A stretch of DNA of 12,850 nucleotides from Candidatus Fervidifonticultor quintus (lineage in GTDB: Bacteria; Sysuimicrobiota; Sysuimicrobiia; Sysuimicrobiales; Humicultoraceae), in NCBI GenBank assembly GCA_031459535.1, contig JAVKIJ010000083.1:1-12850 (forward strand). The letters run 5' to 3'. The position numbers and the translations under genes are program-made. Below the pieces are notes generated by a model, which was not told the DNA's origin, did no database searches, and worked only from the letters and a program-made list of their open reading frames with translations. This document shows positions 1 through 12,850 of the stretch, piece by piece. Within the stretch, counting starts at the first letter, position 1. Every line of letters begins with the position of its first letter.

Positions 1-1
1 G

Positions 2-967
2 CCGGGCCGCGCCGATGTGCTGATCAGGGTGGCCGCCGGCGGGATCTGCGGTACCGACCTCCCCATCTACCGGTGGGACCCGTGGGCCCAATCGCGCATC
101 CGACCGCCCCGCATCATCGGTCATGAGTTCTGCGGCACCGTGGCGGCGATCGGGGCCGATGTGACCGCGGTGGCCGTGGGTGACCGCGTCGCGGGTGAGT
201 GCCACATTGCCTGCGGGTGGTGCAGCCGCTGCCGGCACGGCCAGGCTCATATCTGCGAACGGCTTGAGATCGTCGGCGTCGATCGGGACGGTGCCTTCGC
301 CGAGTACGTGGTGCTGCCGGCGACGAACGCCTGGCGCCTGGACCCGGCGATCCCGCTGGAGATCGCCGCCATCATGGACCCGTTGGGCAACGCCGTGCAC
401 ACCGCGCTCGCGACGGACATCACCACGAAGGCCGTGGCAATTACGGGCTGCGGCCCCATCGGGCTGATGGCCATCCCCGTCTGCCGGATGGCTGGCGCCG
501 CGCTGGTGGTGGCCTCGGACGTGCGGCCCGGCCGGCTGGCGCTGGCCCGTCGCATGGGTGCGGATGTGACCATGGACGCCCGTGGTGAGGACGTGGTGAA
601 GCGCATCCGCCGCCTCACCGACGGGCAGGGCGCCGACGCCGTCCTGGAGATGTCGGGACATCCTGCCGGCATCCGCGATGCGCTGCGGGCCGTGCGCAGC
701 GGGGGATGGGTGGGCCTGCTGGGTCTGCCGAGCGCGCCGGTGGAGCTCGACCTGGCCAACGACATCATCTTCAAGGCTGTGCGGGTCGAGGGCATCTTCG
801 GCCGGCGCCTGTGGCAGACCTGGGAGCAGATGACGGTGTTGCTCAAGCGCGGGCTCGACATCTCGCCTGTCATCACCCACCGGTTCCCCCTGGAGCGCTT
901 CGAGGAGGCCTTCGCGCTGCTGGAGTCCGGTGAGGCCGGGAAGGTGATTCTGACCATTGAGTCCTGA
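2..967 (+). CDS. tdh: L-threonine 3-dehydrogenase (Zn-dependent MDR family), 5'-truncated by the window edge
   Basis: The frame is open from base 2 (PGRADVLIRV...). Motifs: catalytic Zn GICGTD and GHEFCG, structural Zn CGWCSRC...C, DPLGNAVHT, NAD-binding GCGPIG, GIFGRRLWQTW. Lies directly upstream of kbl, the usual tdh-kbl pairing. Confidence 0.92.
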   Translation, partial: PGRADVLIRVAAGGICGTDLPIYRWDPWAQSRIRPPRIIGHEFCGTVAAIGADVTAVAVGDRVAGECHIACGWCSRCRHGQAHICERLEIVGVDRDGAFAEYVVLPATNAWRLDPAIPLEIAAIMDPLGNAVHTALATDITTKAVAITGCGPIGLMAIPVCRMAGAALVVASDVRPGRLALARRMGADVTMDARGEDVVKRIRRLTDGQGADAVLEMSGHPAGIRDALRAVRSGGWVGLLGLPSAPVELDLANDIIFKAVRVEGIFGRRLWQTWEQMTVLLKRGLDISPVITHRFPLERFEEAFALLESGEAGKVILTIES

Positions 968-2153
968 GCGTGCCTCTCCCCTGGGTTTCATCGAAGACGA
1001 ACTGCACGACCTGCGGGCGCGGGGTCTGTGGCGCTGGCCCCGGGTGCTGGAAGGCGCGCAGGAGCCCGTGGCGCGCTACGACGGCCGCGAGGTCATCAAC
1101 CTCTGCTCGAACAACTACCTGGGACTGGCCACGCACCCCGCGTTGAAGGCGGCCGCCCTGGAAGCGGTGGCCACCTACGGAGTGGGTTCCGGGGCCGTGC
1201 GGACCATCGCCGGCAACATGGCGATCCACCAGCAGCTCGAAGCCGAACTGGCGACCTTCAAGCACACCGAGGCGGTCCTGCTCTACCAGTCAGGCTTCAC
1301 GGCCAACGCGGGCACGGTAGCGGCTCTGCTGGGTAAGGAGGACGTGGTGGTCAGCGACGAGCTGAACCACGCCAGCATCATCGACGGCTGCCGGCTCTCG
1401 GGCGCCCAGAAGAAGATCTTCCCGCACAAGGATGTGGCCGCGGCGCGGGCGCTGCTGGCCTCCTCGCGCGGCGCCCGGCGCGTGCTCCTCATCACCGACG
1501 GGGTCTTCAGCATGGACGGCGATATCGCCCCCCTGCCGGACCTGGTGGAGGCTGCCGAGGAGTTCGGCGCCATCATGATGGTGGACGATGCCCACGCCAG
1601 CGGGGTGCTCGGCCGCGACGGCCGCGGGACGGTGGACCACTTCGGGGTGCACGGCCGCGTCCACATTCAGGTCGGCACCCTGTCCAAGGCGTTCGCGGGC
1701 CTGGGAGGCTATGTGGCCGGCAGCCGGGCGCTCATCGACTATCTGATGTGCCGGGCTCGGCCGCTGCTGTTCTCGACCTCGCACCCGCCGTCAGTGGCTG
1801 CCTCGGCGCTGGCCGCGGTGCGCCTCGTGCAACAGCACCCGGAACTGATCTCCAGGCTGTGGGAGAACACGACGTTCTTCAAGCAGGGGCTGCGCCGCCT
1901 GGGATTCGATACAGGGCAGAGTGAGACGCCCATCACCCCGGTCATCGTCGGCGATGAGCGCCGCGCCATGGAGCTGTCCGATCGCCTGTTCGAAGAAGGT
2001 GTCTTCGCCCTGGGCATCGCGTTCCCCACCGTGCCCCGGGGCCGAGCCCGTGTGCGCACCATCGTCACCGCCGCGCACACTCGGGAGCACCTCGAGCGCG
2101 CGCTGGAGGCCTTTGCCCGTGCCGGCCGCGCCGTGGGAGTGACTGGGACCTGA
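957..2153 (+). CDS. kbl: Glycine C-acetyltransferase (2-amino-3-ketobutyrate CoA ligase), PLP-dependent AONS/KBL family
   Basis: Motifs NLCSNNYLGLA, SDELNHASIIDGCRLS, TDGVFSMDGDIA, DDAH and GTLSKAF (PLP lysine). TTG start overlaps the tdh end by 11 nt, with GGAAGG upstream. The tdh context favours kbl over bioF. Confidence 0.88.
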   Translation: MSPERASPLGFIEDELHDLRARGLWRWPRVLEGAQEPVARYDGREVINLCSNNYLGLATHPALKAAALEAVATYGVGSGAVRTIAGNMAIHQQLEAELATFKHTEAVLLYQSGFTANAGTVAALLGKEDVVVSDELNHASIIDGCRLSGAQKKIFPHKDVAAARALLASSRGARRVLLITDGVFSMDGDIAPLPDLVEAAEEFGAIMMVDDAHASGVLGRDGRGTVDHFGVHGRVHIQVGTLSKAFAGLGGYVAGSRALIDYLMCRARPLLFSTSHPPSVAASALAAVRLVQQHPELISRLWENTTFFKQGLRRLGFDTGQSETPITPVIVGDERRAMELSDRLFEEGVFALGIAFPTVPRGRARVRTIVTAAHTREHLERALEAFARAGRAVGVTGT

Positions 2154-3397
2154 CGAGGCGGTCGCGGGCGTTCGGGCCCCTCCCGACACCGGCCGAGGCC
2201 CGGTCGCGCTATCTTGCCGCGCTCGCGCTCGCCCCTCGCGGGACTGAGCGGGTCCCCATCGCCGAGGCCCTGGGTCGGGTGCTGGCCGAGGACGTCGTGG
2301 CGGCGATTGACCTCCCGCCCTTCGAGCGATCGGCGGTCGATGGCTGGGCCGTGCGGGCGGCGGATACAGCGTCCGCAGCCCCTGACCTGCCCGTGCGGCT
2401 CCGGGTCGCGGGAGAGGTGGACATGGGGGCGGCACCCGCCGTGGTCGTCGCTCCCGGCACGGCCGTCCGCGTGCCGACCGGGGGCATGCTCCCGCCGGGC
2501 GCCGACGCCGTCGTCATGCAGGAGGATGTCCTCGAAGAGGACGGCCACGTTCACGTCCGCGGGGCCGCGCGCGCTGGCGGAAACGTGATTCCCCGCGGCC
2601 TGGACGTACGCGCCGGAGAAGTGGTGCTGGCGCGGGGTCGGCGGTTGCGCCCGGCGGACCTGGGCGTCCTCGTCGGCGAGGGACTGACCCACGTGGCGGT
2701 CTACCGGCCGCCCCGCGTGGCCATCGTGGCCACGGGCGATGAGGTGGTCCCGGCTGGCGCTCCGCTGGGGCCCGGCCAGGTACGCGACACCAACAGCGTC
2801 GCGCTGGCCGGTGCCGTGCGAGAGGCAGGAGGGCATCCCGTCCAGCTCGGCATTGTTCCAGACGAGCTGGACGCCACGGTGGCCGCGTTGCGTCAGGCGC
2901 TGGATGGTCACGACATGATCGTGATCACCGGCGGGTCATCCGTGGGAGCCCGCGATATCGTCGGCCCGGCCATCGCGGCCCTTGGCCCGCCCGGGATCAT
3001 CGTCCACGGAATCGCCGTGCGCCCTGGAAAGCCCACGATTCTGGCGGCGTCGGGTCGAGTGCCGGTGATCGGCCTGCCGGGCAACCCGGTTTCAGCGTTG
3101 GTGATCTTCGAACTGTTCGCGAAGCCCGTGCTGAACCAACTCGCCGGACTTGACCCCTCCTCCGGGCCGTGGCGACTGACGCGGGCCAGGCTGGCCGCAC
3201 CCCTCCAGCCCGCCCCGGGCCGCGAAGACCACCGCCGGGTGCGGCTCGAAGCACGTCCCGACGGATGGTGGGCTGTTCCGCTGCCGGCAGGTTCACAGGT
3301 GTTGACCTCGCTGGTCCGTGCGCACGGCATCGTGGCCGTGCCGGCCGGTGGGGGATACGACCGCGGTGACGAGGTGGAGGTGTATCTGCTGGGATGA
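2150..3397 (+). CDS. moeA: Molybdopterin molybdenumtransferase MoeA (gephyrin E-domain family)
   Basis: Motifs [71 protein letters not shown]. MoeA-like sequence continues in frame upstream of the ORF-track start (2279). The start given here is the CTG at 2150, overlapping the kbl TGA; it is inferred. Confidence 0.9.
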
Positions 3398-3882
3398 AGG
3401 GGTTGACACATCTCGACCGCCGCGGTCGGGCCCGCATGGTGGATGTCTCCGGCAAGCCTCCCACCGCCCGTGAGGCGGTCGCACGGGCCCTGGTGCGCAT
3501 GCGGCCGCAGACGCTGGCATTGATCCGGCAGAAGCGGATCGTCAAGGGCAGTGTGCTGGAGGTGGCCCAGCTCGCGGGCATCATGGCCGCGAAGCGCACG
3601 GCCGAGCTGATTCCGCTCTGTCATCCCATCGCCCTGACCGATGTCCAGGTGCGGGTGGTGCCCGCCCCTGATGCCGGTGGCGTGGCCATTGAGGCCACGG
3701 CGCGCACCGTGGACCGGACGGGCGTCGAGATGGAAGCCCTGGTGGCAGCCAGCGTGGCGGCCCTGACGGTCTACGATATGTGCAAGGCCCGGGACCGCGG
3801 CATGCTCATTGATGCGGTACGACTGGTGCGCAAGCGCGGCGGACGCAGCGGCGAGTACCGCCGGCCCGGCGAGCCGCCGTGA
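3394..3882 (+). CDS. moaC: Cyclic pyranopterin monophosphate synthase MoaC
   Basis: Motifs [61 protein letters not shown] overlap with moeA. Confidence 0.96.
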
Positions 3883-4439
3883 CGCCGGTTGGAACTCAGC
3901 CAGCCGGATCAGACCGCGCCCTGGCCGGCGTGAGGGTCGCCGTGCTCACGCTCTCCGATACCGTGGCCGCCGGACGCGGCCGCGATGACAGCGGCGACCT
4001 CATCGTCTCCGCCCTCGAGGTGCGCGGCGCAACCATCGTTGCCCGCCAGGTGCTGGGCGACGATCGTGATGCGATCGTGCGGGCGCTGGTGCGATATGCC
4101 GACGAGGACCGCGCCGCGCTGGTCCTGACCACCGGGGGCAGCGGCCTGGGGCCCCGCGACGTGACCCCCGAGGCGACCCTGGCCGTGGTCGACCGTCTGG
4201 CGCCTGGATTCGTGGAGGCGGCTCGCATGCGTACCCTGGCACACACGCCCATGGCGATGCTCTCTCGCGCGGTGGCCGGCGTGCGGGGCCAGACGCTCAT
4301 CATCAATCTCCCCGGCAGCCCGAAGGCTGTGGCGGAGTGGCTGGAGGTCTTGCTGCCCGTGCTGCCGCACGCGATCCGCACGCTGCGCGGCGAGGGCGGC
4401 CCGTGGGGAACGGACCACCGTTCGGAGCTCGGGCAGTAG
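3879..4439 (+). CDS. MoaB/MogA family molybdopterin adenylyltransferase
   Basis: Motifs [52 protein letters not shown] overlap with moaC. moaB and mog cannot be told apart by eye. Confidence 0.9.
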
Positions 4440-4440
4440 T

Positions 4441-4456
4441 CCGCCGCTTCCGGCGG
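4441..4456 (+). terminator. GC-rich hairpin just after the Moco genes (possible terminator or mRNA 3' protector)
   Basis: CCGCCG-CTTC-CGGCGG begins 2 nt after the moaB/mog stop. There is no U-tract, so terminator function is uncertain. Confidence 0.3.
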
Positions 4457-4584
4457 CCGCTCCCACCCTCAGGGGAAGATCGGTTCCGAAACCGATAGCC
4501 CGCGCATTGCCCCGGCGGTTATGGTGGGGATGGTGTGTTTGCGTCGCGCGTACCCGCCACAGCGCACCGATCCGGAGGAACAGC

Positions 4585-6294
4585 GTGCGCACGTATACCC
4601 ATGACGTGCTGATCCTGGGCAGCGGCCTGGCCGGGCTCCGCGCCGCACTGGAGGTCATGCGCACTGCGCGCGGCGAGCTCGACATGGCCATCCTCTCCAA
4701 GGCGCAACTGATGCGGGCGCACTCGGTGTGCGCCGAAGGCGGCACCGCCGCGGTCTTGCGCCCAGAGGACGGCGACAGCATGGATCTCCACGCCTGGGAC
4801 ACGGTGAAGGGCGCCGACTTCCTGGCCGATCAGGACGTGGTCTGGCGCTTCGTCGAGGCATCCCCCCGGGAGATCCTTCAGCTCGACCACTGGGGTACGC
4901 CCTGGTCCCGCCAACAGGACGGCCGCCTTGACCAGCGGCCCTTCGGCGGTCACAGCTATCCGCGTGCGACCTTTGCCGCCGACAAGACCGGGTTCTTCGA
5001 GATGCAGACGCTGTACGACACGCTGCAGCGCTATCCGCGCCTGGCCCGGTATGAGGAGTGGGTGGCCACGCGCATGTTCCTTCGCGATGGTGCCTTCGCC
5101 GGGGTGGTCGCGTGGAGCCTGACGACCGGCGAGCTGGCGCTGATCAGGGCCAGAGCGGCCATTGTTGCCACCGGCGGGTTCTGCCGGCTGTTCGGCTTTA
5201 CCACGTATTCCCACTCGGTGACCGGTGACGGCCTGGCCATGGCCTACCGGGCCGGCCTGCCCCTGAAGGACATGGAGTTCGTCCAGTTCCACCCCACCGG
5301 GCTGGTGCCATCCGGCATCCTGATCACCGAGGCCGCCCGCGGCGAGGGAGGGTATCTGCGCAACAGCGAAGGCCGCCGCTTCATGGAGGACTACGCGGCC
5401 AAAATGATGGAGCTGGCTCCCCGCGACATCATCAGCCGGGCCGAGATGACCGAGATCGAGTCCGGCCGCGGGTTCGTACACCCAAGCGGCCTGGGCCACG
5501 TGCAGCTCGATCTCACTCACCTGGGCCGCGACCGGATCCTAGAACGCCTCCCGCTCATCCGTGAGGTCGCTATCAAGTTCAACGGCATTGACCCCGTTGA
5601 GGGTCCTTTGCCGGTGCGACCTGCTGCGCACTACTCCATGGGCGGCATCGCCTGCGACATCGACGGCCGGGTCACAGAGGGCCTGTGGGCCGCCGGTGAG
5701 GCGGCCTGCATGTCGTTGCACGGCGCCAACCGGCTGGGCACCAACTCTACCGCGGAGTGCCTGGTCTGGGGAGCCATCACCGGACGCGAGGCCGCCCGGT
5801 GGGCCCAGGCGCACCGGGCGATTCCGGACGCGCCGATTGCCGAGGCAGAGGAGGAGCAGGCGCGCCTGACGCGGATCCTCCAGTCGCGCGGCCGGGAGAA
5901 CCAGTACGATATCCGCCGGCGCCTGCGGCAGCTCATGGATGAGAAGGTCGGCGTGTTCCGCACGGGCCAGGGCTTGCAGGAGGCCCTGGACGAGGTGCGC
6001 CACCTGCGGGCCCAGGCAGCCGAGATCCACCTGGACGACCGGAGCTGGATCTACAACACCGACCTGGTCTCGGCCTTGGAGCTGGAGAACCTGCTGGATC
6101 TGGCGGAAGTGGTGATCTGTGGGGCCCTGGCCCGGACCGAGTCGCGCGGGGCGCATGCGCGGCGCGACTTCCCAGCGCGCGACGATGAGCGCTGGCTCGT
6201 GCATACCATGGCGTATGCCACGCCCCGGGGCCCAAGGTTGGAGTACCAGCCGGTGACCATCACGACCTGGAAGCCGGTGGAGCGCAAGTACTGA
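4585..6294 (+). CDS. sdhA: Succinate dehydrogenase/fumarate reductase flavoprotein subunit
   Basis: FAD-binding DVLILGSGLAGLRAA, covalent-FAD His motif RAHSVCAEGG, QFHPTG, LITEAARGEGG, ELAPRD, HYSMGG, HGANRLG, RTESRGAH. Start moved from 4507 to the GTG at 4585, which has SD GGAGGA at 4574-4579. Catalytic direction (sdh or frd) cannot be determined. Confidence 0.93.
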   Translation: MRTYTHDVLILGSGLAGLRAALEVMRTARGELDMAILSKAQLMRAHSVCAEGGTAAVLRPEDGDSMDLHAWDTVKGADFLADQDVVWRFVEASPREILQLDHWGTPWSRQQDGRLDQRPFGGHSYPRATFAADKTGFFEMQTLYDTLQRYPRLARYEEWVATRMFLRDGAFAGVVAWSLTTGELALIRARAAIVATGGFCRLFGFTTYSHSVTGDGLAMAYRAGLPLKDMEFVQFHPTGLVPSGILITEAARGEGGYLRNSEGRRFMEDYAAKMMELAPRDIISRAEMTEIESGRGFVHPSGLGHVQLDLTHLGRDRILERLPLIREVAIKFNGIDPVEGPLPVRPAAHYSMGGIACDIDGRVTEGLWAAGEAACMSLHGANRLGTNSTAECLVWGAITGREAARWAQAHRAIPDAPIAEAEEEQARLTRILQSRGRENQYDIRRRLRQLMDEKVGVFRTGQGLQEALDEVRHLRAQAAEIHLDDRSWIYNTDLVSALELENLLDLAEVVICGALARTESRGAHARRDFPARDDERWLVHTMAYATPRGPRLEYQPVTITTWKPVERKY

Positions 6295-6316
6295 CAGACG
6301 GAGGCAGAGGAGGAGC

Positions 6317-6781
6317 ATGGCCTCGCACAGCGCTGTGTCGGTGGATCGCAAGGTGCCCCCGCGCGCAGGCGGCCGTCTGGGTCTGCGCGGTTGGGTCTAT
6401 GCGGGCCGCTACCCGATCGAACGCTATCTGTACACCCTGCACCGCGCGACGGGACTGGGGCTGATCGTGTACCTGCCGCTCCATGTCTGGGTCACCGGTC
6501 GGCGACTGGCCGGGCCGGACGTCTGGGAACAGACGATCGCGACGCTTCGACACCCGGTGCTGGTGGCAGGCGAGTTCCTCGTGCTCGTGGGATTCGTCTT
6601 TCACGCCCTCAACGGCGTCAGGCTCCTGCTCGGCCACCTGGGCTACACCCTGGGCCGGCCGGGTCATCCGGTCTATCCGTACGCCGTCGCGCTGCACCGG
6701 CAGAGGCCCCTGACGGTGGCGTTGATGGTGCTGGCCGGCGTGTTCATCGCCCTCGGCGCCTGGGGATTCGTGACGCGATGA
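6317..6781 (+). CDS. sdhC: Succinate dehydrogenase/fumarate reductase cytochrome b membrane anchor, SdhC-like
   Basis: LHRATG motif, LHVW, FHALNGVR, three hydrophobic segments. SD GAGGAGG. Confidence 0.85.
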   Translation: MASHSAVSVDRKVPPRAGGRLGLRGWVYAGRYPIERYLYTLHRATGLGLIVYLPLHVWVTGRRLAGPDVWEQTIATLRHPVLVAGEFLVLVGFVFHALNGVRLLLGHLGYTLGRPGHPVYPYAVALHRQRPLTVALMVLAGVFIALGAWGFVTR

Positions 6782-6809
6782 GGGACCGCGACGCGGGGAG
6801 GGAGGCCAC

Positions 6810-7184
6810 GTGAGGGAGTCCAGGCTCTGGGCGCTGCATCTGCTGGCGGGGGCCGCGCTGCTGGTCTTGTTAGGCATCCACATGGCCATCATGCACTACG
6901 ATGTCGTTCTCCAATTTCTCGGCGCCGCGCACGAGCCGGTCCTGACGTTTGGAGCCGTGCTCGCCCGGGACCGCGACGCCGTCATGCGGGTGTTGTACGT
7001 GCTCCTCCTGGGCTGCGCGTTGTATCACGGACTGTACGGTCTCCGCGGCATCCTCCGGGAGATCTGGCCGTCGGAGCGGGCCGGCCGGGCAGTAGCTGCC
7101 GCGGTGGTCATCGTGGGCTTGGTGGTGTTCGTCTACGGCGTGGCCGTAGTGGCGGAAGCGGGACGGCGGGCGGCCGTCCTGTGA
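6810..7184 (+). CDS. sdhD: Succinate dehydrogenase/fumarate reductase hydrophobic anchor, SdhD-like
   Basis: WALHLLAG, GIHMAIMH, LYHGLYGLRGIL, three hydrophobic segments. SD GGAGG at 6801-6805. Confidence 0.82.
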   Translation: MRESRLWALHLLAGAALLVLLGIHMAIMHYDVVLQFLGAAHEPVLTFGAVLARDRDAVMRVLYVLLLGCALYHGLYGLRGILREIWPSERAGRAVAAAVVIVGLVVFVYGVAVVAEAGRRAAVL

Positions 7185-7197
7185 TGGAGAGTTCGTC

Positions 7198-8031
7198 ATG
7201 GGCGTAGCGGCGAGCGCGCGCGGAGCGACGACGCTGACCGTCAGGGTCAGGCGATACCAGCCCGACGGCGATGGCGGCCAGCGCACGGACACATGGACGA
7301 TTCCGGCATCGCCGGGCATGACGGTGCTGGACGCGTTGTTTGCCGTCAAGGAGCACCACGACGGCTCGCTGGCCTTCCGGTGTTCTTGCCGGATGGGCGT
7401 ATGCGGGTCGTGCGGCATGATGATCAACGGCAAGCCGCAGCTGGCCTGCAACACCCAGGTGAGCGCGCTGGGCCCTCTCATTGAGGTCAGCCCGCTGCCG
7501 AACCACGATGTGATCAAGGACCTCGTGCCCGAGCTGGCCGCGACCTTCGCCCGGCACGCGTCTGTGCGGCCGTACATCATTCGCCGCGATGCCGCAGAGC
7601 TGGACGCCCCGACTCGGGAGTTCCGCCAGACGCCCGAGGAGTTGCTCAGGTATGTGCAGTTCAGCTACTGCCTGAAGTGCAGCCTCTGCCTGGCCGCCTG
7701 TCCCACGGAAGCCAAGGCCGCGGCGTTCCTTGGGCCGCAGGCACTGGCGGCCGCGTATCGCTATACCGCTGACAGCCGCGACGAGGGCCTGGACGATCGC
7801 GCCCGCATCGTGGACGCCGTGGGGGGTGTGTTTGGCTGCCACCTGGCCGGCGCGTGCAGCGAGGCGTGCCCCAAGGGCGTGGATCCGGCCCTGGCGATCC
7901 AACTGCTCAAACGCGCGTTGTTGTTCGGTCCGCCGCATCGCGCGGCGGCAGAGGTCGTGCCCGCCGTGCCGGAGGAGTACCGGACGGCCAGGGCGGAGTC
8001 GATCCCCAAGGCGCCCGCACCCAGCGTGTAG
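7198..8031 (+). CDS. sdhB: Succinate dehydrogenase/fumarate reductase iron-sulfur subunit
   Basis: [2Fe-2S] motif SCRMGVCGSC...LACNT, VIKDLV, [4Fe-4S] motif CLKCSLCLAACP, [3Fe-4S] motif CHLAGACSEACPKG. Confidence 0.93.
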   Translation: MGVAASARGATTLTVRVRRYQPDGDGGQRTDTWTIPASPGMTVLDALFAVKEHHDGSLAFRCSCRMGVCGSCGMMINGKPQLACNTQVSALGPLIEVSPLPNHDVIKDLVPELAATFARHASVRPYIIRRDAAELDAPTREFRQTPEELLRYVQFSYCLKCSLCLAACPTEAKAAAFLGPQALAAAYRYTADSRDEGLDDRARIVDAVGGVFGCHLAGACSEACPKGVDPALAIQLLKRALLFGPPHRAAAEVVPAVPEEYRTARAESIPKAPAPSV

Positions 8032-8072
8032 ACGTTCGGCGCTGGCAGGGGCGCAAGGAGGGCTACGCAACG

Positions 8073-9530
8073 ATGGCTGGCATCCCCGGTTCCAGAGAGA
8101 GCAGCCCTCGCACGAACCGTCAGCTCTCCCGCGCTCTGGTGCCGATCGTGGTGGCGATCGTCATCGCCCTGATCCCCGCGCCGTCGGGGCTCGAACCGTC
8201 CGCCTGGCGGTACTTCGCGCTCTTCGTGGGCGTCATCCTCGGCCTGATCCTGGAGCCGGTGCCGGCGGCCCTGATTGGTATGATCGGGGTCACGCTGGGC
8301 GCGCTGCTCGGCCTGGTGACCCCCAAGCCGGCGGACGCCGTCCGATGGGCGCTGTCGGGCTTCACGGACACCACGGTCTGGCTCATCTTCACCGCGTACA
8401 TGCTCGCGCTCGGCTATCAAAAGAGCGGTCTGGGGCGGCGAGTGGCGCTGTTCCTGGTGCGCCGTCTGGGCGCCAGAACCCTCGGGCTGGGGTACGCCGT
8501 GGCGCTGTCCGACCTGGTCGTGGCGCCGTTCACGCCCTCCAACACCGCCCGCAGCGGTGGCATCATCTATCCGGTGATCCAGAACATCCCGCCGCTCTAC
8601 GGCTCCGAGCCCGGCCCGACCGCGGGGAAGGTGGGGGCCTTCCTGATGTGGACGGCGTTTGCCAGCACCTGTGTCACGAGTTCGATGTTCATTACCTCCC
8701 TGGCCCCGAACGCGCTGACGCTCTCGCTCATCCTGAAGGGCGCCAACATCCAGGTGTCGTGGACCGAATGGTTCGTCGGGTTCCTTCCGGTCGGCGTCGT
8801 GCTGTTCGTCTTGACGCCGCTGCTGGTCTACTGGCTGTATCCACCGCAGGTGAGGGTCAGCACCGAAGTGCCGGAGTGGGCCGGGCAGGAGCTAGGCAAG
8901 ATGGGGGCGGTGAGCCGTCGCGAGTGGACCATGGCCGGGCTCGCGCTGCTGGCCCTCGTGCTCTGGATCTTCGCAGCTGCCCGGATCAACACCACCACGG
9001 TGGCCCTGGTGGTTCTGATCCTCATGGTGCTGCTCGGGGTCATCAGTTGGGACGACGTGCTGGCCAACAAGCAGGCCTGGAACGTCCTGGTTTGGTTCGC
9101 CACGCTGGTGACCATGGCTGGCGGCTTGAGCCAGGTGAATTTCCTGGAATGGCTCGCCAAGGGCGTGGCCTCGTCGCTGGCGGGCATCGCGGTGGGAGCC
9201 ATGGTGGTGTTGTTCGTGGCCTCCTACTTCGTGGTGCACTACATGTTCGCGAGTCTGACGGCGCACGTGACAGCGCTGCTGCCGGCCCTGCTGGCCGTGG
9301 CGGTGGCCGTGCCGGGGATGCCGGCGCGTATGCTCGCCTTGCTGCTCGCCTACAGCCTGGGGCTGATGGGCATCCTGACACCGTACGCGACCGGGCCTGC
9401 GCCGATCTACTACGGGAGCGGGTACATCGCCCGCAGGGACTTCTGGAGGCTGGGGTTGATCTTCGGGCTGATCTACCTGGTGGCCTTGTTGGTCATCGGC
9501 ATCCCGTACCTCGGGGCCATCGGCCGTTGA
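8073..9530 (+). CDS. DASS family di/tricarboxylate transporter (CitT/TtdT-like anion permease)
   Basis: Highly hydrophobic. Motifs WALSGF, SGLGRRVAL, APFTPSNTARSGGIIYP, TSSMFITSLAPN, HYMFASLTAH, LTPYATGPAPIYYGSGY. Start is the ATG at 8073 with SD AAGGAGG at 8055-8061; the ORF-track start at 7854 lies inside sdhB. Confidence 0.9.
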   Translation: MAGIPGSRESSPRTNRQLSRALVPIVVAIVIALIPAPSGLEPSAWRYFALFVGVILGLILEPVPAALIGMIGVTLGALLGLVTPKPADAVRWALSGFTDTTVWLIFTAYMLALGYQKSGLGRRVALFLVRRLGARTLGLGYAVALSDLVVAPFTPSNTARSGGIIYPVIQNIPPLYGSEPGPTAGKVGAFLMWTAFASTCVTSSMFITSLAPNALTLSLILKGANIQVSWTEWFVGFLPVGVVLFVLTPLLVYWLYPPQVRVSTEVPEWAGQELGKMGAVSRREWTMAGLALLALVLWIFAAARINTTTVALVVLILMVLLGVISWDDVLANKQAWNVLVWFATLVTMAGGLSQVNFLEWLAKGVASSLAGIAVGAMVVLFVASYFVVHYMFASLTAHVTALLPALLAVAVAVPGMPARMLALLLAYSLGLMGILTPYATGPAPIYYGSGYIARRDFWRLGLIFGLIYLVALLVIGIPYLGAIGR

Positions 9531-9557
9531 GCGCTTCCGGTAGGAGGGAGTGGCATC

Positions 9558-10043
9558 ATGGAGATCACCGTGGTCCCCATCGAGAAGCCCGAGGCCGCCA
9601 ACGTCATCCTCGGGCAGTCCCACTTCATCAAGACGGTGGAAGACCTGCACGAGGCGCTGGTGACCGCGGTGCCTGGCATCAAGTTCGGGCTGGCCTTCTG
9701 CGAGTCCAGCGGGAAGCGGCTCATCCGGCGGTCGGGTACGGACGAGGCGTTGGTGGAGCTGGCCACCAGAAACGCGCTGGCCGTCGGCTGCGGCCACTTT
9801 TTCATCATCGTGTTGGGCGAGGGGTTCTTTCCCGTCAACGTCCTGGCCGCCGTCCGGGCCTGCCCCGAGGTGGTGGGCATCTACTGCGCGACGGCGAATC
9901 CCGTCGGGGTGGTCGTCGCGCAGGAGGGCGAGCAACGCGGCGTGCTGGGCGTGCTAGACGGCCTCGTGCCGCTGGGGGTCGAGGATGCGGCCGAGGTGTC
10001 CTGGCGCAAGGACCTGCTGCGGCGCTTGGGCTACAAGCAGTAA
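9558..10043 (+). CDS. Adenosine-specific kinase family protein (DUF355 / PAE2307-like)
   Basis: NVILGQSHFIKTVEDLHEAL, FGLAFCESSG..LIR.SG.D, GHFFII, FPVNVL, IYCATANP, GVLGVLDG, RKDLLRRLGYK. SD AGGAGG. Family recognised from memory; the in vivo function is not established. Confidence 0.85.
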   Translation: MEITVVPIEKPEAANVILGQSHFIKTVEDLHEALVTAVPGIKFGLAFCESSGKRLIRRSGTDEALVELATRNALAVGCGHFFIIVLGEGFFPVNVLAAVRACPEVVGIYCATANPVGVVVAQEGEQRGVLGVLDGLVPLGVEDAAEVSWRKDLLRRLGYKQ

Positions 10044-10046
10044 AGG

Positions 10047-10799
10047 CTACGCACCGGGTCGGGCGGCGGTCGCTACGCGGACCGGGATGCGCCGCCAGAC
10101 CGAGATCGCCCGCGGGCTGACCCGGCACGTATAGGCCACCAGCACGACGCCCGCTCGCCTGGCGCGGGCGGCGGCGCGTGCCAGCGCCGGGTCTGCCGCC
10201 GCGTCCACCCGCAGGGCACGCGCGTCGGGGCGCTGCACGAACCAGACCACGGCTGCGCGCATCCCCTGCCCGGCCGCCTGCGCCAGGGCCAGGAGGTGGC
10301 GGGCCCCCCGAGCCGTCGGGGCGTCTGGAAACAGCGCTTCGCCGGACTCCACGCGATTGCAGGACTTGGCCTCAACGAGCCAGGTAATGGCACCGGCCTG
10401 CATGACGAAGTCGATGCGCACGCCGCGCAGGCGAACCTCCTGACGCCAGGCGGCTGGCTCGGGCAGCGGCGGTAGCGGCCTGCAACGCAGCGACGCGGCC
10501 AGCAGACGGTTCGGGAGCGTGGCGTCCAGCCCCACCCACTGTCCCCTGTGCCGGATGAGCACCATGGTGCCGTGTGTGCGACGCGCGCCTCTCCTCGTCA
10601 GGTGAACGAGAGCGATGGCGCCTGGCACCAGCAGCTCGGTCATTCTCCCGGAGTTCGGCAGGTGGGCGTAGATCAGGGCGCGGCTGTCCTCCAGGCGCAG
10701 GGACGCGGCGAACCGGTTGATCCGTCGCACGAAGGCGGCCCGGCGCAGCGGCCGGGGCAGAGGGACCGCAATGGGTCCTCGTCGGGCGCTCGATGCCAC
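10047..10799 (-). CDS. sfsA: DNA/RNA nuclease SfsA (sugar fermentation stimulation protein)
   Basis: RRINRF, HLPNSGRMTELL, RIDF, VEAKSC (PD-(D/E)XK-like), FPDAPTARGARHL, FVQRPD. The start is uncertain: GTG at 10799 was chosen because the longer ORF-track version runs across the opposite-strand promoter. Confidence 0.88.
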   Translation of the reverse strand: MASSARRGPIAVPLPRPLRRAAFVRRINRFAASLRLEDSRALIYAHLPNSGRMTELLVPGAIALVHLTRRGARRTHGTMVLIRHRGQWVGLDATLPNRLLAASLRCRPLPPLPEPAAWRQEVRLRGVRIDFVMQAGAITWLVEAKSCNRVESGEALFPDAPTARGARHLLALAQAAGQGMRAAVVWFVQRPDARALRVDAAADPALARAAARARRAGVVLVAYTCRVSPRAISVWRRIPVRVATAARPGA

Positions 10800-10868
10800 G
10801 CCAGCAGAGTTCGTCAGTGGACGCCGGGGTCTTGCCGTGCGCCAGCAGACGGGGCGCGATTCGTCGAG

Positions 10869-10898
10869 TTGACGCTGTTTCCCACCGACGTCTATAAT
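10869..10898 (+). promoter_or_regulatory. Sigma70-type promoter for the T-box/tRNA-Ala/ilvE/leuS transcript
   Basis: TTGACG (10869-10874), an 18-nt spacer, then TATAAT (10893-10898). Near-consensus in a GC-rich background and about 30 nt upstream of T-box Stem I. Confidence 0.85.
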
Positions 10899-11094
10899 CC
10901 CACTGATAGACAACCTCATACGGTGCTGGCAATGACCGGGAGCAGTAGGCGCCTGTGCCGCCGCAGAGCGAGTCGGGACTAGTGGGAGCCGACCGGCGGG
11001 GTCGCTGAACTCGCCCGGGAGCCGCGGGGACGATGGGAAGCGTGCCGTAGTCCTCGCCGGGGCCCCACGAGATGGGGATGAGCGGACAGGGTCC

Positions 11095-11169
11095 GGGCCA
11101 GTAGCTCAGCGGGAGAGCGCCCGCTTGGCGTGCGGGAGGTCGGGGGTTCAATTCCCCTCTGGTCCACCA
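11095..11169 (+). tRNA. tRNA-Ala(GGC), 75 nt, CCA encoded
   Basis: Acceptor stem GGGCCAG/CTGGTCC with the G3:U70 alanine determinant, then A73-CCA. D arm GCTC-AGCGGGA-GAGC. Anticodon arm CCCGC-TTGGCGT-GCGGG, anticodon GGC at 11127-11129. Variable loop AGGTC. T arm GGGGG-TTCAATT-CCCCT. Confidence 0.96.
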
Positions 11170-11207
11170 GATTCTCGAACCCTGTCAACCGGGGTGGTAC
11201 CGCGGAG

Positions 11208-11243
11208 GCCGTCTTCGTCCCTTGGACGAGACGGCGTTTGTGT
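11208..11243 (+). terminator. T-box conditional terminator, mutually exclusive with the antiterminator
   Basis: GCCGTCTTCGTCC-CTT-GGACGAGACGGC (12 bp, one bulged U), followed by GTTTGTGT. Its 5' arm contains CGTCC, which in the antiterminator pairs with GCG (11202-04) and the G run at 11191-94 around the UGGUACC bulge. Confidence 0.82.
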
Positions 11244-11263
11244 CCTCGGGGAGGGATATCCGC

Positions 11264-12196
11264 GTGAAAGCGTCGAGCCGCATCTGGATGGACGGCAGGT
11301 TCGTGCCCTGGGACGACGCGACGGTGCACGTGGCGGCCCACGTGGTGCACTACGGGTCCAGCGTCTTCGAGGGCATCCGTGCATACGACACGGTCGCGGG
11401 GCCGGCGGTCTTCTGTCTGGGACCGCATGTGCGGCGCTTCGAGGACTCCTGCCGGATCTTTCGGATGCCGCTGCCGTACTCACGCGACGAGATCGGCGCG
11501 GCCATCCTGGAGACCGTGCGGATCAACGGCCACCGGAGCTGTTACATCCGGCCGGTGGCCTTCCGCGGTGTCGAGTCGCTGGCCGTGGACCCGCGCAAGT
11601 GCCCCATCCACGTGGCCATTCTCACCATCGAGTGGGGCCGGTACCTGGGGCCGGAGGCCATCGAGCAGGGGGTGGACGTGATGGTGACCTCGTGGCGGCG
11701 CATGGCGCCCGATACGCACCCGGGCATGGGCAAGATCGGCGGCAACTACGTCAACTCCGCCTTCGTGGTCATGCAAGCCGTTGACAACGGCTTCGCCGAG
11801 GGCATCGCCCTGGATGTGCAGGGATATCTCAGCGAGGGCAGCGGCGAGAACCTGTTTCTGGTCCGGGACGGGGTCGCCTACACCCCGCCCATGGCGGCCT
11901 CGATCCTGGGCGGTGTGACCCGGGGGGTCGTCCTCGCTCTGTGCCGGGACGCTGGCATCGAAGTGCGAGAGACCCCCATCCCGCGGGAGATGCTCTACAT
12001 CGCCGATGAGGCTTTCTTCACGGGCACGGCGGCGGAGATCACGCCGATCCGGTCAGTGGATCGCCAACCGGTCGGGTGCGGCCGTCGCGGCCCGATCACG
12101 GCGCGCCTGCAGGAGGAGTTCTTCGGCATCACCGAGGGCCGGATTCCCGACCGGCACGGCTGGCTGACACCCGTCCCGGTCGCCGCGGGTCCGTAG
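11264..12196 (+). CDS. ilvE: Branched-chain amino acid aminotransferase
   Basis: [40 protein letters not shown] (PLP lysine), [34 protein letters not shown] start at 11264 with SD GGGGAGGG at 11248-11255; the ORF-track start at 11222 falls inside the terminator. Confidence 0.94.
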
Positions 12197-12222
12197 CGAA
12201 CCCTCGGTCCGGGAGGGCACCT

Positions 12223-12850
12223 GTGGCAACGGTGCGGTACGATCCTTCGGTCATCGAACCCAAGTGGCAGCGTCGCTGGGAGGCGGACCAGCTCTACCAC
12301 GCTCCCGACCACGATCCGCGGCCCAAGTTCTACCTGCTGACCATGTATCCGTATCCCTCGGGGGACCTGCACGTGGGACACTGGTATCCCATGGCACCGT
12401 CGGACGCCATTGCGCGCTACAAGCGGCGGCGCGGGTACAACGTGATGCTCCCCATCGGCTTCGACGCCTTCGGCCTGCCGGCGGAGAACGCGGCCATTGA
12501 GCGCGGCATTCACCCGTACCGGTGGACCATGGACAACATCGAGCGGATGCGCCGGCAGCTGCGCTCCATGGGCGCCATGTGGGACTGGGCGCGCGAGGTG
12601 GTCACGTGCGACCCGGAGTACTACCGGTGGAACCAGTGGTTCTTCCTGAAGATGTACGAGAGAGGCCTGGCGTACCGGGCGCTGGCGCCGGTGGACTGGT
12701 GCCCCAAGGACAACACGACCCTGGCCCGCGAGCAGGTAGTGGGCGACCAGCGCGTTTGCGAGCGCTGCGGCACCCCGGTCGTGAAGAAGAACCTGGAGCA
12801 GTGGTTCTTGAGGATCACCGCCTACGCCGATGAGCTGCTGGACTTCTCCA
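12223..12850 (+). CDS. leuS: Leucine--tRNA ligase, N-terminal part (3'-truncated by the window edge)
   Basis: Absent from the ORF track because there is no stop codon in the window. GTG at 12223 with SD GGGAGG at 12211-12216. Translates [20 protein letters not shown]...[19 protein letters not shown] (HIGH motif)...[16 protein letters not shown]...YYRWNQWFF...[14 protein letters not shown]...CERCG...[14 protein letters not shown]. Confidence 0.96.

Follow-up and report, generated by a model that had tools for sequence, protein, structure and literature searches.

We analysed a window of 12,850 nucleotides (nt) from Candidatus Fervidifonticultor quintus (phylum Sysuimicrobiota; assembly GCA_031459535.1, contig JAVKIJ010000083.1, positions 1–12,850 of the forward strand), in which a T-box riboswitch leader precedes ilvE and leuS, and a transfer RNA (tRNA) gene, tRNA-Ala(GGC), lies within that leader. 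A complete leucine T-box and a complete, unique tRNA-Ala(GGC) gene occupy the same segment of DNA. The insert is closed by Stem III of the T-box, and only one promoter-like site was detected (Table 1). A first-pass annotation of the window had read the region as a single RNA that senses tRNA-Leu(GAG) and also serves as the precursor of a different tRNA, and this interpretation is supported in every part open to computation. Its placement of ilvE and leuS downstream likewise stands, but the start of ilvE is corrected here to the GTG at 11264. The assembly (G000) is a 3.1-Mb metagenome-assembled genome (MAG) of 138 contigs, with 88.85% completeness, 5.24% contamination and 68.7% G+C.

The T-box leader and its nested tRNA-Ala(GGC)

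The covariance model (CM) of the T-box family, Rfam RF00230, is aligned over its full length (model positions 1–219) to 10923–11225, with a score of 57.8 bits and an E value of 3.9e-12 in an E-value scan of 10850–11300. The full leucine T-box with a CUC specifier that the first-pass annotation had described is thereby recovered end to end, though below the RF00230 gathering score of 93 bits; an Rfam scan at gathering thresholds reports the tRNA and no T-box in the window. The elements of Stem I (AGUA, GAA-CUC-G, AGCGAG and GUGGGA) align to the RF00230 consensus. Stem III, an 8-base-pair (bp) helix formed by 11085–11092 and 11179–11186, is framed as GAGCG-GACAGGGT...ACCCTGTC-AA and stands directly before the T-box sequence GGGGTGGTACCGCGGA (11191–11206). 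The sole large insertion in the CM alignment, 88 nt, falls exactly within the loop of this helix, where the tRNA had been placed at first reading. The antiterminator and the terminator are mutually exclusive; nucleotides 11214–11220 are common to both, and the terminator overlaps the antiterminator in its 3' half. The minimum-free-energy (MFE) fold of 11079–11245 holds the Stem III helix and the terminator and does not reproduce the tRNA cloverleaf. By its features, the element is a class I transcriptional T-box: it has every structural trait of a T-box that we examined and misses the Rfam score threshold alone, in a G+C-rich lineage.

The ligand that the specifier calls for is present in the same genome. 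A tRNA-Leu(GAG) gene with A73-CCA, which fits both the CUC specifier and the UGGU bulge of the antiterminator, lies at 74016–74101 of contig C1 of G000, in agreement with the cognate tRNA proposed at the outset. The GCC directly 3' of the specifier (CUCGCC) was considered as a cis specifier for the GGC anticodon of the nested tRNA and rejected, because these bases comprise the conserved purine and the opening pairs of the helix of lower Stem I, and GUC stands at this place in many relatives.

The Stem III loop consists of 2 nt, a 75-nt tRNA including an encoded CCA, and 9 nt, which together make an insert of 86 nt. The claim that this tRNA is intact is borne out by ARAGORN, which finds one tRNA in the whole 12.85-kb window (anticodon ggc at tRNA position 33), and by Rfam RF00005, whose model gives the cloverleaf 66.1 bits against a gathering score of 29. 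Alanine identity is specified by G3:U70 together with A73. Both features are present in the window tRNA, as they are in all 94 nested tRNAs collected below.

The nested gene is the only credible tRNA-Ala(GGC) detected in G000. ARAGORN lists three 'Ala ggc' genes there, of which two, at C64:1799–1881 (83 nt) and C73:55072–55166 (95 nt), were rejected on account of mismatched stems and of their absence from the 36 tRNA matches that Rfam lists in this assembly; they are probably false positives in G+C-rich DNA. The same holds in five of five near-complete relatives (G003, G004, G008, G012 and G039; 96–98% complete), each of which has exactly one tRNA-Ala(GGC), the nested one. In these five genomes, the 27 loci matching the window tRNA at E ≤ 1e-3 were typed with ARAGORN, and the others among them are Ala(TGC), Ala(CGC), Val, Gly, Arg and further tRNAs, with one locus lacking a tRNA. 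The tRNA-Ala(CGC) gene of G000 lies on a different contig from the window. GCC is the commonest alanine codon in G000 (48%, in a crude set of 808 long stretches resembling open reading frames (ORFs)), and the ribonuclease P (RNase P) RNA is encoded there (258.1 bits). Sub-threshold labels of transfer-messenger RNA (tmRNA) that the clan competition of Rfam assigns to some tRNA-Ala loci (41–46 bits, gathering score 47) were set aside as an artefact of the alanine-tRNA-like domain of tmRNA; the labelled loci are L017, L019, L022–L024, L026, L028–L030, L042, L050, L107 and L116.

TATAAT-like boxes occur at the place of the promoter-like site in the leaders of several relatives. The divergent upstream neighbour of the leader is an sfsA-like gene (Pfam SfsA and SfsA_N; 10047–10919, − strand), whose true start is probably further in, because the 5' end given by the ORF finder would overlap the leader promoter. 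Elsewhere in G000, a second overlong T-box match (L008; C46:41525–41854) extends over 330 nt with 38 bits; ARAGORN finds no tRNA on that contig.

Table 1. Positions of the leader elements, the nested tRNA gene and the downstream genes in the window
Feature	Position	Strand	Evidence
Promoter-like site, TTGACG-18 nt-TATAAT	10869–10898	+	11 of 12 consensus matches; 0 in 50 shuffles
Whole T-box leader, predicted also to be the pre-tRNA-Ala transcript, to the end of the terminator U-tract	10923–11243	+	RF00230 alignment; terminator and U-rich tail read from the sequence; fold
Stem I, the decoding domain; AGUA/GAA specifier loop, and AGCGAG / GUGGGA as distal motifs of the tRNA-elbow platform	10929–11022	+	CM alignment
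Specifier codon CUC (Leu), followed by purine G 11013	11010–11012	+	CM alignment; loop context GAA-CUC-G
Stem II (11025–11056) and Stem IIA/B region (11058–11069)	11025–11069	+	CM alignment
RRRNG motif GAGCG (11080–11084) and Stem III 5' strand GACAGGGT (11085–11092)	11080–11092	+	Sequence; CM alignment
tRNA-Ala(GGC); anticodon 11127–11129, G3:U70, A73, encoded CCA 11167–11169	11095–11169	+	ARAGORN; Rfam RF00005
Stem III 3' strand ACCCTGTC (11179–11186) and conserved AA (11187–11188)	11179–11188	+	Sequence; CM alignment; fold
T-box sequence and antiterminator; UGGU bulge 11195–11198	11191–11222	+	CM alignment
Terminator hairpin 11208–11220 / 11224–11235 (12 bp, one bulge) with tail GUUUGUGU	11208–11243	+	Read from the sequence; in MFE fold
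ilvE, branched-chain amino acid transaminase; GTG start; Shine-Dalgarno sequence GGAGGG 11251–11256	11264–12196	+	NF005146 410.2 bits (cut-off 279); TIGR01122 398 bits; Pfam Aminotran_4
leuS, 5' part, continuing past the window end	12226–12849	+	Best family TIGR00396 leuS_bact, 297.9 bits on a 208-aa fragment; Pfam tRNA-synt_1

Conservation and natural variants of the nested arrangement

When 60 relatives were searched with the leader at the DNA level, all five members of the window's genus, and many genera of its family and order, gave one continuous match over Stem I, the tRNA and the T-box. ARAGORN finds tRNA-Ala(GGC) in 29 of the 30 loci L011–L040; since L011 is the window itself, this corresponds to 28 of 29 relatives' loci, and the exception (L039, no tRNA call) is a match at the end of its sequence stretch. 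Among 20 relatives' loci, the RF00230 match spans the tRNA in 16, covers the Stem I region only in three, and is missing at E ≤ 1e-3 in one. The leaders of L060 and L115, whose records are titled Candidatus Fervidifonticultor and Ca. Sysuimicrobiota, are about 80% identical to that of the window.

In an alignment of 29 leaders from this phylum (A1), pairing is seen in 94.6% of the cells that make up Stem III, the antiterminator and the four arms of the tRNA, as compared with 85.8% after shuffling (none of 500 shuffles reaches the observed value) and 50.6–58.8% when partners are slid. Of the eight pairs in Stem III, five vary on both strands, which, together with the nesting in relatives and in other phyla, answers in the affirmative the check for conservation and covariation that the first-pass annotation had called for; the two innermost Stem III columns are alignment artefacts. 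All four tRNA arms are 100% paired, with compensatory changes, and G3:U70 occurs in 29 of 29 rows. The antiterminator pairs are kept at 99–100%, and Stem I is kept in 28 of 29 rows. Throughout Sysuimicrobiota, the Stem III 5' strand stops 0–4 nt 5' of the tRNA. One row of A1 (L036) comes from an unpublished genome (G022), and no conclusion rests on it.

To cover other phyla, a single genome of each prokaryotic species was searched for a tRNA T-loop with the T-box sequence 36–66 nt downstream, which gave at least 80 loci (at least 120 stretches); all counts below over 65 loci, and those over 92 or 94 leaders that include them, are among the matches listed. tRNA-Ala(GGC) lies at the match in 65 of the 80 loci, other tRNAs in seven, and none in eight. 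In the 10 of these 15 remaining loci that were scanned with Rfam (all except L059, L068, L105, L114 and L117), no T-box overlaps a tRNA, so the nesting is specific to tRNA-Ala(GGC). By record title, the 65 loci belong mostly to Chloroflexota (Ktedonobacteria, Thermomicrobiales, Sphaerobacteraceae, Limnocylindria, Chloroflexia, Anaerolineae and Caldilineales), and also to Bacillota (Syntrophomonadaceae among others), a single-cell genome of Atribacteria and a MAG labelled Armatimonadota; two isolates, Tengunoibacter tsumagoiensis and Dictyobacter alpinus (both Ktedonobacteria), are among the carriers. The T-box CM aligns at full length across the tRNA in eight of eight loci from other phyla, and three of these pass the gathering score of 93 bits despite the insert (104.7, 103.1 and 100.7 bits).

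In terms of frequency, the pattern exceeds chance: it occurs in 29 of 94 genomes of the window's phylum and in 51 of 401 genomes taken as an even sample of the phylum to which Tengunoibacter and G094 belong, and a reversed control pattern gives 0 in both sets. Because the pattern is exact and its gap range limited, these frequencies are lower bounds.

The 94 nested tRNAs (29 from the set of the window's phylum and 65 from the species scan) share a 7-bp acceptor stem, G3:U70 and A73 without exception, and 70 of them encode CCA. The specifier context GAA(N)CTC[AG]YC is found in 87 of the 94 nested leaders; of the rest, two are truncated upstream and three read CAACTC or AAACTC. A Stem III helix of at least 5 bp is found in 87 of 92 leaders, and in 62 it reaches 7 bp or more. 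The helix takes 76 different sequences, and its mean length is 7.34 bp, as compared with 5.44 bp when the 5' and 3' sides of different leaders are combined (n = 1728). These helices were sought by an anchored, ungapped search over 70 nt, which under-calls bulged helices. The RRRNG motif is present in 52 of 92 leaders and AA in 75 of 92, by a simple ungapped search. Among the 60 of 65 loci with a callable ORF downstream, the first is leuS-like in 46, ilvE-like in nine and something else in five. Three of four such other ORFs examined (in L050, L055 and L092) encode GNAT acetyltransferases of about 190 aa; the remaining loci are L119 and L051, the latter with a different ORF of 478 aa and no Pfam match, and three of the five are titled Candidatus Limnocylindria. 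The nested arrangement is widespread and of single origin and, judged from these sequence patterns, all parts of the nested leader are under selection across phyla.

The same comparison bears on whether the junction between tRNA and T-box could be an error of assembly or binning. The window comes from a MAG of 138 contigs with 5.24% contamination, which leaves room for such an error; however, the same junctions recur in dozens of independent assemblies, including the isolates T. tsumagoiensis and D. alpinus and a single-chromosome MAG, and also in contigs of RNA libraries. The misassembly of which the first-pass annotation had warned is not borne out, and this explanation, already refuted by conservation, has a negligible probability.

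Un-nested states also occur. Five genomes from three genera of the window's family (G006, G007, G017, G021 and G023; loci L161–L165) carry a compact CUC T-box of 220–250 nt (45.6–78.2 bits), with tRNA-Ala(GGC) 0.12–3.3 kb upstream on the same strand. One of them, G007, has an ordinary Stem III hairpin in the alignment and a TTGACT-17-TACAAT box between the tRNA and the T-box. These un-nested leaders are a natural counterpart of the excision that the first-pass annotation had proposed: since the orthologous CUC T-box of relatives within the family has an ordinary Stem III, the insert is not required by the switch. A different derivative is found in G011 (L033), which has lost Stems I and II and has a TTGACG-17-TATAAT promoter about 20 nt before the tRNA; the T-box sequence, the terminator and ilvE–leuS are still there, along with a short helix that flanks the tRNA. 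G025 is probably the same derivative without a decoding domain, because it shares the tRNA-to-T-box string of G011.

In 27 of the 65 nested loci from other phyla, a tRNA-Ala(CGC) gene lies 193–370 nt upstream of the nested tRNA on the same strand. There, Stems I and II of the T-box form the spacer between two tRNA-Ala genes, and the riboswitch sits inside a tRNA operon. The titles of these loci are mostly Ktedonobacteria, Anaerolineae and Caldilineae (L041, L045, L049, L052, L058, L061, L064, L065, L071 and L072 are among them), and the distance from the first tRNA to the start of the T-box match is about 18 nt in L058 and about 36 nt in L116. The window itself has no upstream tRNA-Ala(CGC) neighbour.

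Proposed working of the leader

From the features of the sequence, we consider it very probable that the element is a functional leucine T-box (specifier CUC, ligand tRNA-Leu(GAG)) that would control ilvE–leuS, and that the leader would also be a pre-tRNA-Ala in which the tRNA is a passenger. We infer co-transcription from a single promoter, the order of decision and processing, the response to tRNA-Leu, and the maturation of terminated leaders into tRNA-Ala. The single near-consensus promoter would drive both the T-box and the tRNA, and the leader would be transcribed at a high rate. Stems I and II would be transcribed first, followed by the Stem III 5' strand, the whole tRNA, the Stem III 3' strand and the T-box sequence, so that Stem III would double as the leader–trailer helix of the pre-tRNA and as part of the discriminator domain of the T-box, and the T-box terminator as that of the tRNA gene. 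The choice to stop or continue would be taken co-transcriptionally. With charged tRNA-Leu, transcription would stop near 11243 and yield an RNA of about 340 nt that is a pre-tRNA-Ala; uncharged tRNA-Leu would stabilise the antiterminator and let transcription proceed into ilvE–leuS. tRNA-Ala would be made in both outcomes, as RNase P and 3' nucleases would release it from either product.

The regulated genes leuS and ilvE fit leucine sensing. The insert lies at distal Stem III, where the T-box is predicted to tolerate extra RNA, and would be a passenger with no working role in the sensor, for which the un-nested relatives speak. Stem III is described as varying in sequence and length at its distal end (PMC7913692), and its conserved contacts, the RRRNG and AA motifs, as lying at its base (TBDB paper, PMC7778990), which makes an insert in Stem III structurally plausible. 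Once the nested gene had become the only GGC copy, the tRNA would be locked in place.

RNA libraries provide a weak hint of co-transcription. A hot-spring metatranscriptome (X1) holds 81% of the words sampled from 10850–11300, and one of its contigs (324 nt) covers 10887–11210 with a single mismatch, thus linking the T-box sequence and the tRNA to Stem I and to the part of the leader near the promoter. In a sludge RNA library (X4), a 151-nt contig has the Stem III 5' strand, the tRNA and the T-box of a relative in one piece. Two further RNA runs (X2 and X3) hold small shares and related sequence only and lend no support. An uncovered stretch of X1 at 10805–10865 was considered as evidence of a transcript start and rejected. 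As a separate observation, contigs of X1 and X4 over 11095–11221 contain the nested junctions in the versions of relatives; their loose ends run from the Stem III 5' strand into the tRNA and from the tRNA 3' end into the Stem III 3' strand.

A promoter of the tRNA's own, inside the leader (in Stem II or the linker), would leave the terminator alone as the shared part and reduce the nesting to gene packing. G011 has just such a promoter before its tRNA, though without Stems I and II, and our promoter scan was a simple search that covers sites of the sigma-70 consensus type, a point against transcription from one promoter. On the other side, the sole promoter-like site in 10600–11400 lies upstream of Stem I, and the consensus scan finds none within 11024–11094, where the first-pass annotation had allowed for one. 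Furthermore, 11024–11094 is conserved as the structure of Stems II, IIA/B and III; in Sysuimicrobiota, the closeness of the Stem III 5' strand to the tRNA (0–4 nt) likewise argues against a promoter there, and the RNA-library contigs bridge Stem I to the tRNA, if weakly. An own promoter is accordingly very unlikely.

Several further observations weigh against a functional T-box that doubles as a tRNA precursor. The RNA libraries may contain carried-over DNA, because they are represented by assembled contigs with neighbouring genes at similar depth (3.5–6), and the bridging contig of X1 begins at 10887, upstream of the expected start site. The terminator has a weak U-tract (GUUUGUGU), and a terminator pattern scan of 10600–11400 listed none. 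Stem III ends 2 nt from the RNase P site, a closeness that, by analogy with known RNase P substrates, could hinder cleavage. With the assembly at 88.85% completeness, another tRNA-Ala(GGC) gene could be missing from it. Finally, the window T-box (57.8 bits) misses the membership threshold of 93 bits, as do all 10 T-box matches of G000, nested or un-nested.

The low score, together with G011 and probably G025, in which Stem III, the T-box sequence and the terminator are what is left, could be taken to mean that the T-box is a decaying relic that does not sense tRNA-Leu, the locus being a tRNA gene with leftover flanks and a constitutive terminator. However, the specifier, the S-turn motifs, the distal loop motifs, the antiterminator and the terminator are intact in the full-model alignment, these elements are conserved with covariation across phyla, and an essential gene, leuS, stands downstream of the terminator. 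Equally low scores are obtained for un-nested T-boxes in this genome and family, so the low score reflects lineage and composition and not decay; nor is the insert alone the cause of the low Rfam scores of this lineage, because compact un-nested T-boxes also stay at 45.6–78.2 bits. The shortfall of the window is explained by lineage, composition and the penalty for the insert, with no parts missing. We regard decay to a relic as highly improbable and retain the reading of a functional leucine T-box.

Comparison with known systems and significance

The leader shares with canonical transcriptional T-boxes (RF00230; the tyrS, glyQS and leuS leaders of Bacillus) Stem I with its specifier loop, Stem II, Stem IIA/B, a Stem III framed by RRRNG and AA, a T-box sequence of 14 nt containing a UGGN bulge, an antiterminator in competition with a terminator, and the control of an aminoacyl-tRNA synthetase gene. 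It is distinct from them in the Stem III loop, which measures a few nt in canonical T-boxes, whereas the window has an 86-nt insert that amounts to a whole tRNA gene for a different amino acid, and its leader would also be a tRNA precursor.

tRNAs that are co-transcribed with other genes are well known, such as those of the thrU-tyrU-glyT-thrT-tufB operon of E. coli and the tRNA-Ile/Ala of ribosomal RNA operon spacers. In such operons, as is predicted here, the tRNA is excised from a longer transcript on which the product of another gene is also encoded, and flanking leader–trailer helices occur. However, their tRNA stands beside another element, whereas that of the window is located inside a folded sensor and the downstream gene would be gated by the riboswitch around it. 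A further tRNA-shaped element in a longer RNA is mascRNA, a substrate of RNase P and RNase Z that defines RNA ends; it is eukaryotic, does not decode and involves no riboswitch. A weak match to its family in MALAT1 / MEN-beta (RF01684; 11095–11165, 19.3 bits versus 42.5) arises from the tRNA-like shape only, and membership of the nested tRNA was rejected, as the score is far below 42.5.

The S. aureus met leader (Wencker et al. 2021) has a 150-nt insertion of plain stem-loops before Stem III that is said to be absent from all the other T-boxes analysed there (PMC7913692). Like the window, it represents a functional T-box tolerating a large lineage-specific insertion in the linker and Stem III region, and cleavage of the leader by a ribonuclease affects the fate of the messenger RNA (mRNA). 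By comparison, its insertion, as described in that source, is outside Stem III, holds no gene and is specific to staphylococci, and the cleavage is by RNase III in the terminator. In the B. subtilis thrS leader (Condon et al. 1996, as quoted in PMC7913692), the mRNA is stabilised by cleavage immediately before the terminator, and an adenine riboswitch, that of pbuE, is reported to be a target of RNase P (Seif & Altman 2008, via PMC7913692). In these cases, a leader is cut upstream of the terminator or expression platform, and the hairpin that remains can protect the mRNA. In contrast, the cut sites in the window, where processing is predicted, would be set by a genuine tRNA substrate and yield a useful product.

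These precedents (PMC7913692), the strictly kept position of the insert (the Stem III loop, with the same tRNA, in several phyla) and the presence of RNase P RNA in G000 lend some weight to the main alternative, in which the insert is chiefly a tRNA-shaped processing or structural module of the switch. RNase P and 3' cleavage would then be a built-in step that cuts Stems I and II, with the bound tRNA-Leu, from the expression platform; the cleavage would return the switch to its starting state and give the ilvE–leuS mRNA a new 5' end, at which the terminator hairpin would act as a stabiliser. In a variant, the roughly 86 nt would serve as a co-transcriptional delay before the termination decision. 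However, the insert is dispensable for the switch, as close relatives run the orthologous CUC T-box with the tRNA outside, and the tRNA keeps all its decoding features and is the sole GGC isoacceptor detected, so that selection on the tRNA alone explains the conservation. We consider the module in these forms, taken jointly, to be unlikely.

A tentative, if doubtful, proposal goes beyond the passenger tRNA in the following way. The leuS T-box may be integral to an alanine-tRNA transcription unit (in 27 of the 65 loci, Stems I and II fill the whole interval from tRNA-Ala(CGC) to tRNA-Ala(GGC)), and maturation by RNase P and 3' nucleases may be a programmed step of the switch, which would sever the decoding domain from the expression platform, release the bound tRNA-Leu, set off the clearing of terminated leaders and leave a protective 5' hairpin on the leuS mRNA. 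If true, this would be the first case in which tRNA-processing enzymes shape the output of a riboswitch through a gene that lies within it, and it might be a living trace of an origin of T-boxes from the leaders and trailers of tRNA operons.

For the functional leucine T-box with a passenger tRNA, we found no description of a tRNA gene inside a T-box in full-text literature searches, which returned passages of the TBDB paper (PMC7778990), Wels 2008, Sun et al. 2013 (PMC3766115, on Chloroflexi regulons) and a 2025 riboswitch survey among others; this is provisional, as supplementary T-box lists may contain such leuS leaders. T-boxes and tRNA genes are themselves textbook elements; a riboswitch whose sensor fold contains a functional RNA gene is, provisionally and as far as the searched literature goes, undescribed. 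Annotation pipelines miss or mis-split such leaders because they fall below the Rfam threshold in many genomes or overlap a tRNA call, and the missed annotation hides leuS regulation across Chloroflexota and related phyla.

With the nested leaders, nature provides a test of the amount of additional RNA that the discriminator domain of a T-box can accommodate at Stem III, and of a co-transcriptional decision that would run alongside RNase P and 3' processing of the same nascent RNA. In evolutionary terms, the nested state, the un-nested state with an upstream tRNA, the state without a decoding domain and the state flanked by tRNA-Ala(CGC) form a rare series on the merging and separating of a riboswitch and a tRNA gene. 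For the organism, the arrangement would be one of economy, in which an abundant, prematurely terminated leader would serve as precursor to the tRNA for the most frequent alanine codon.

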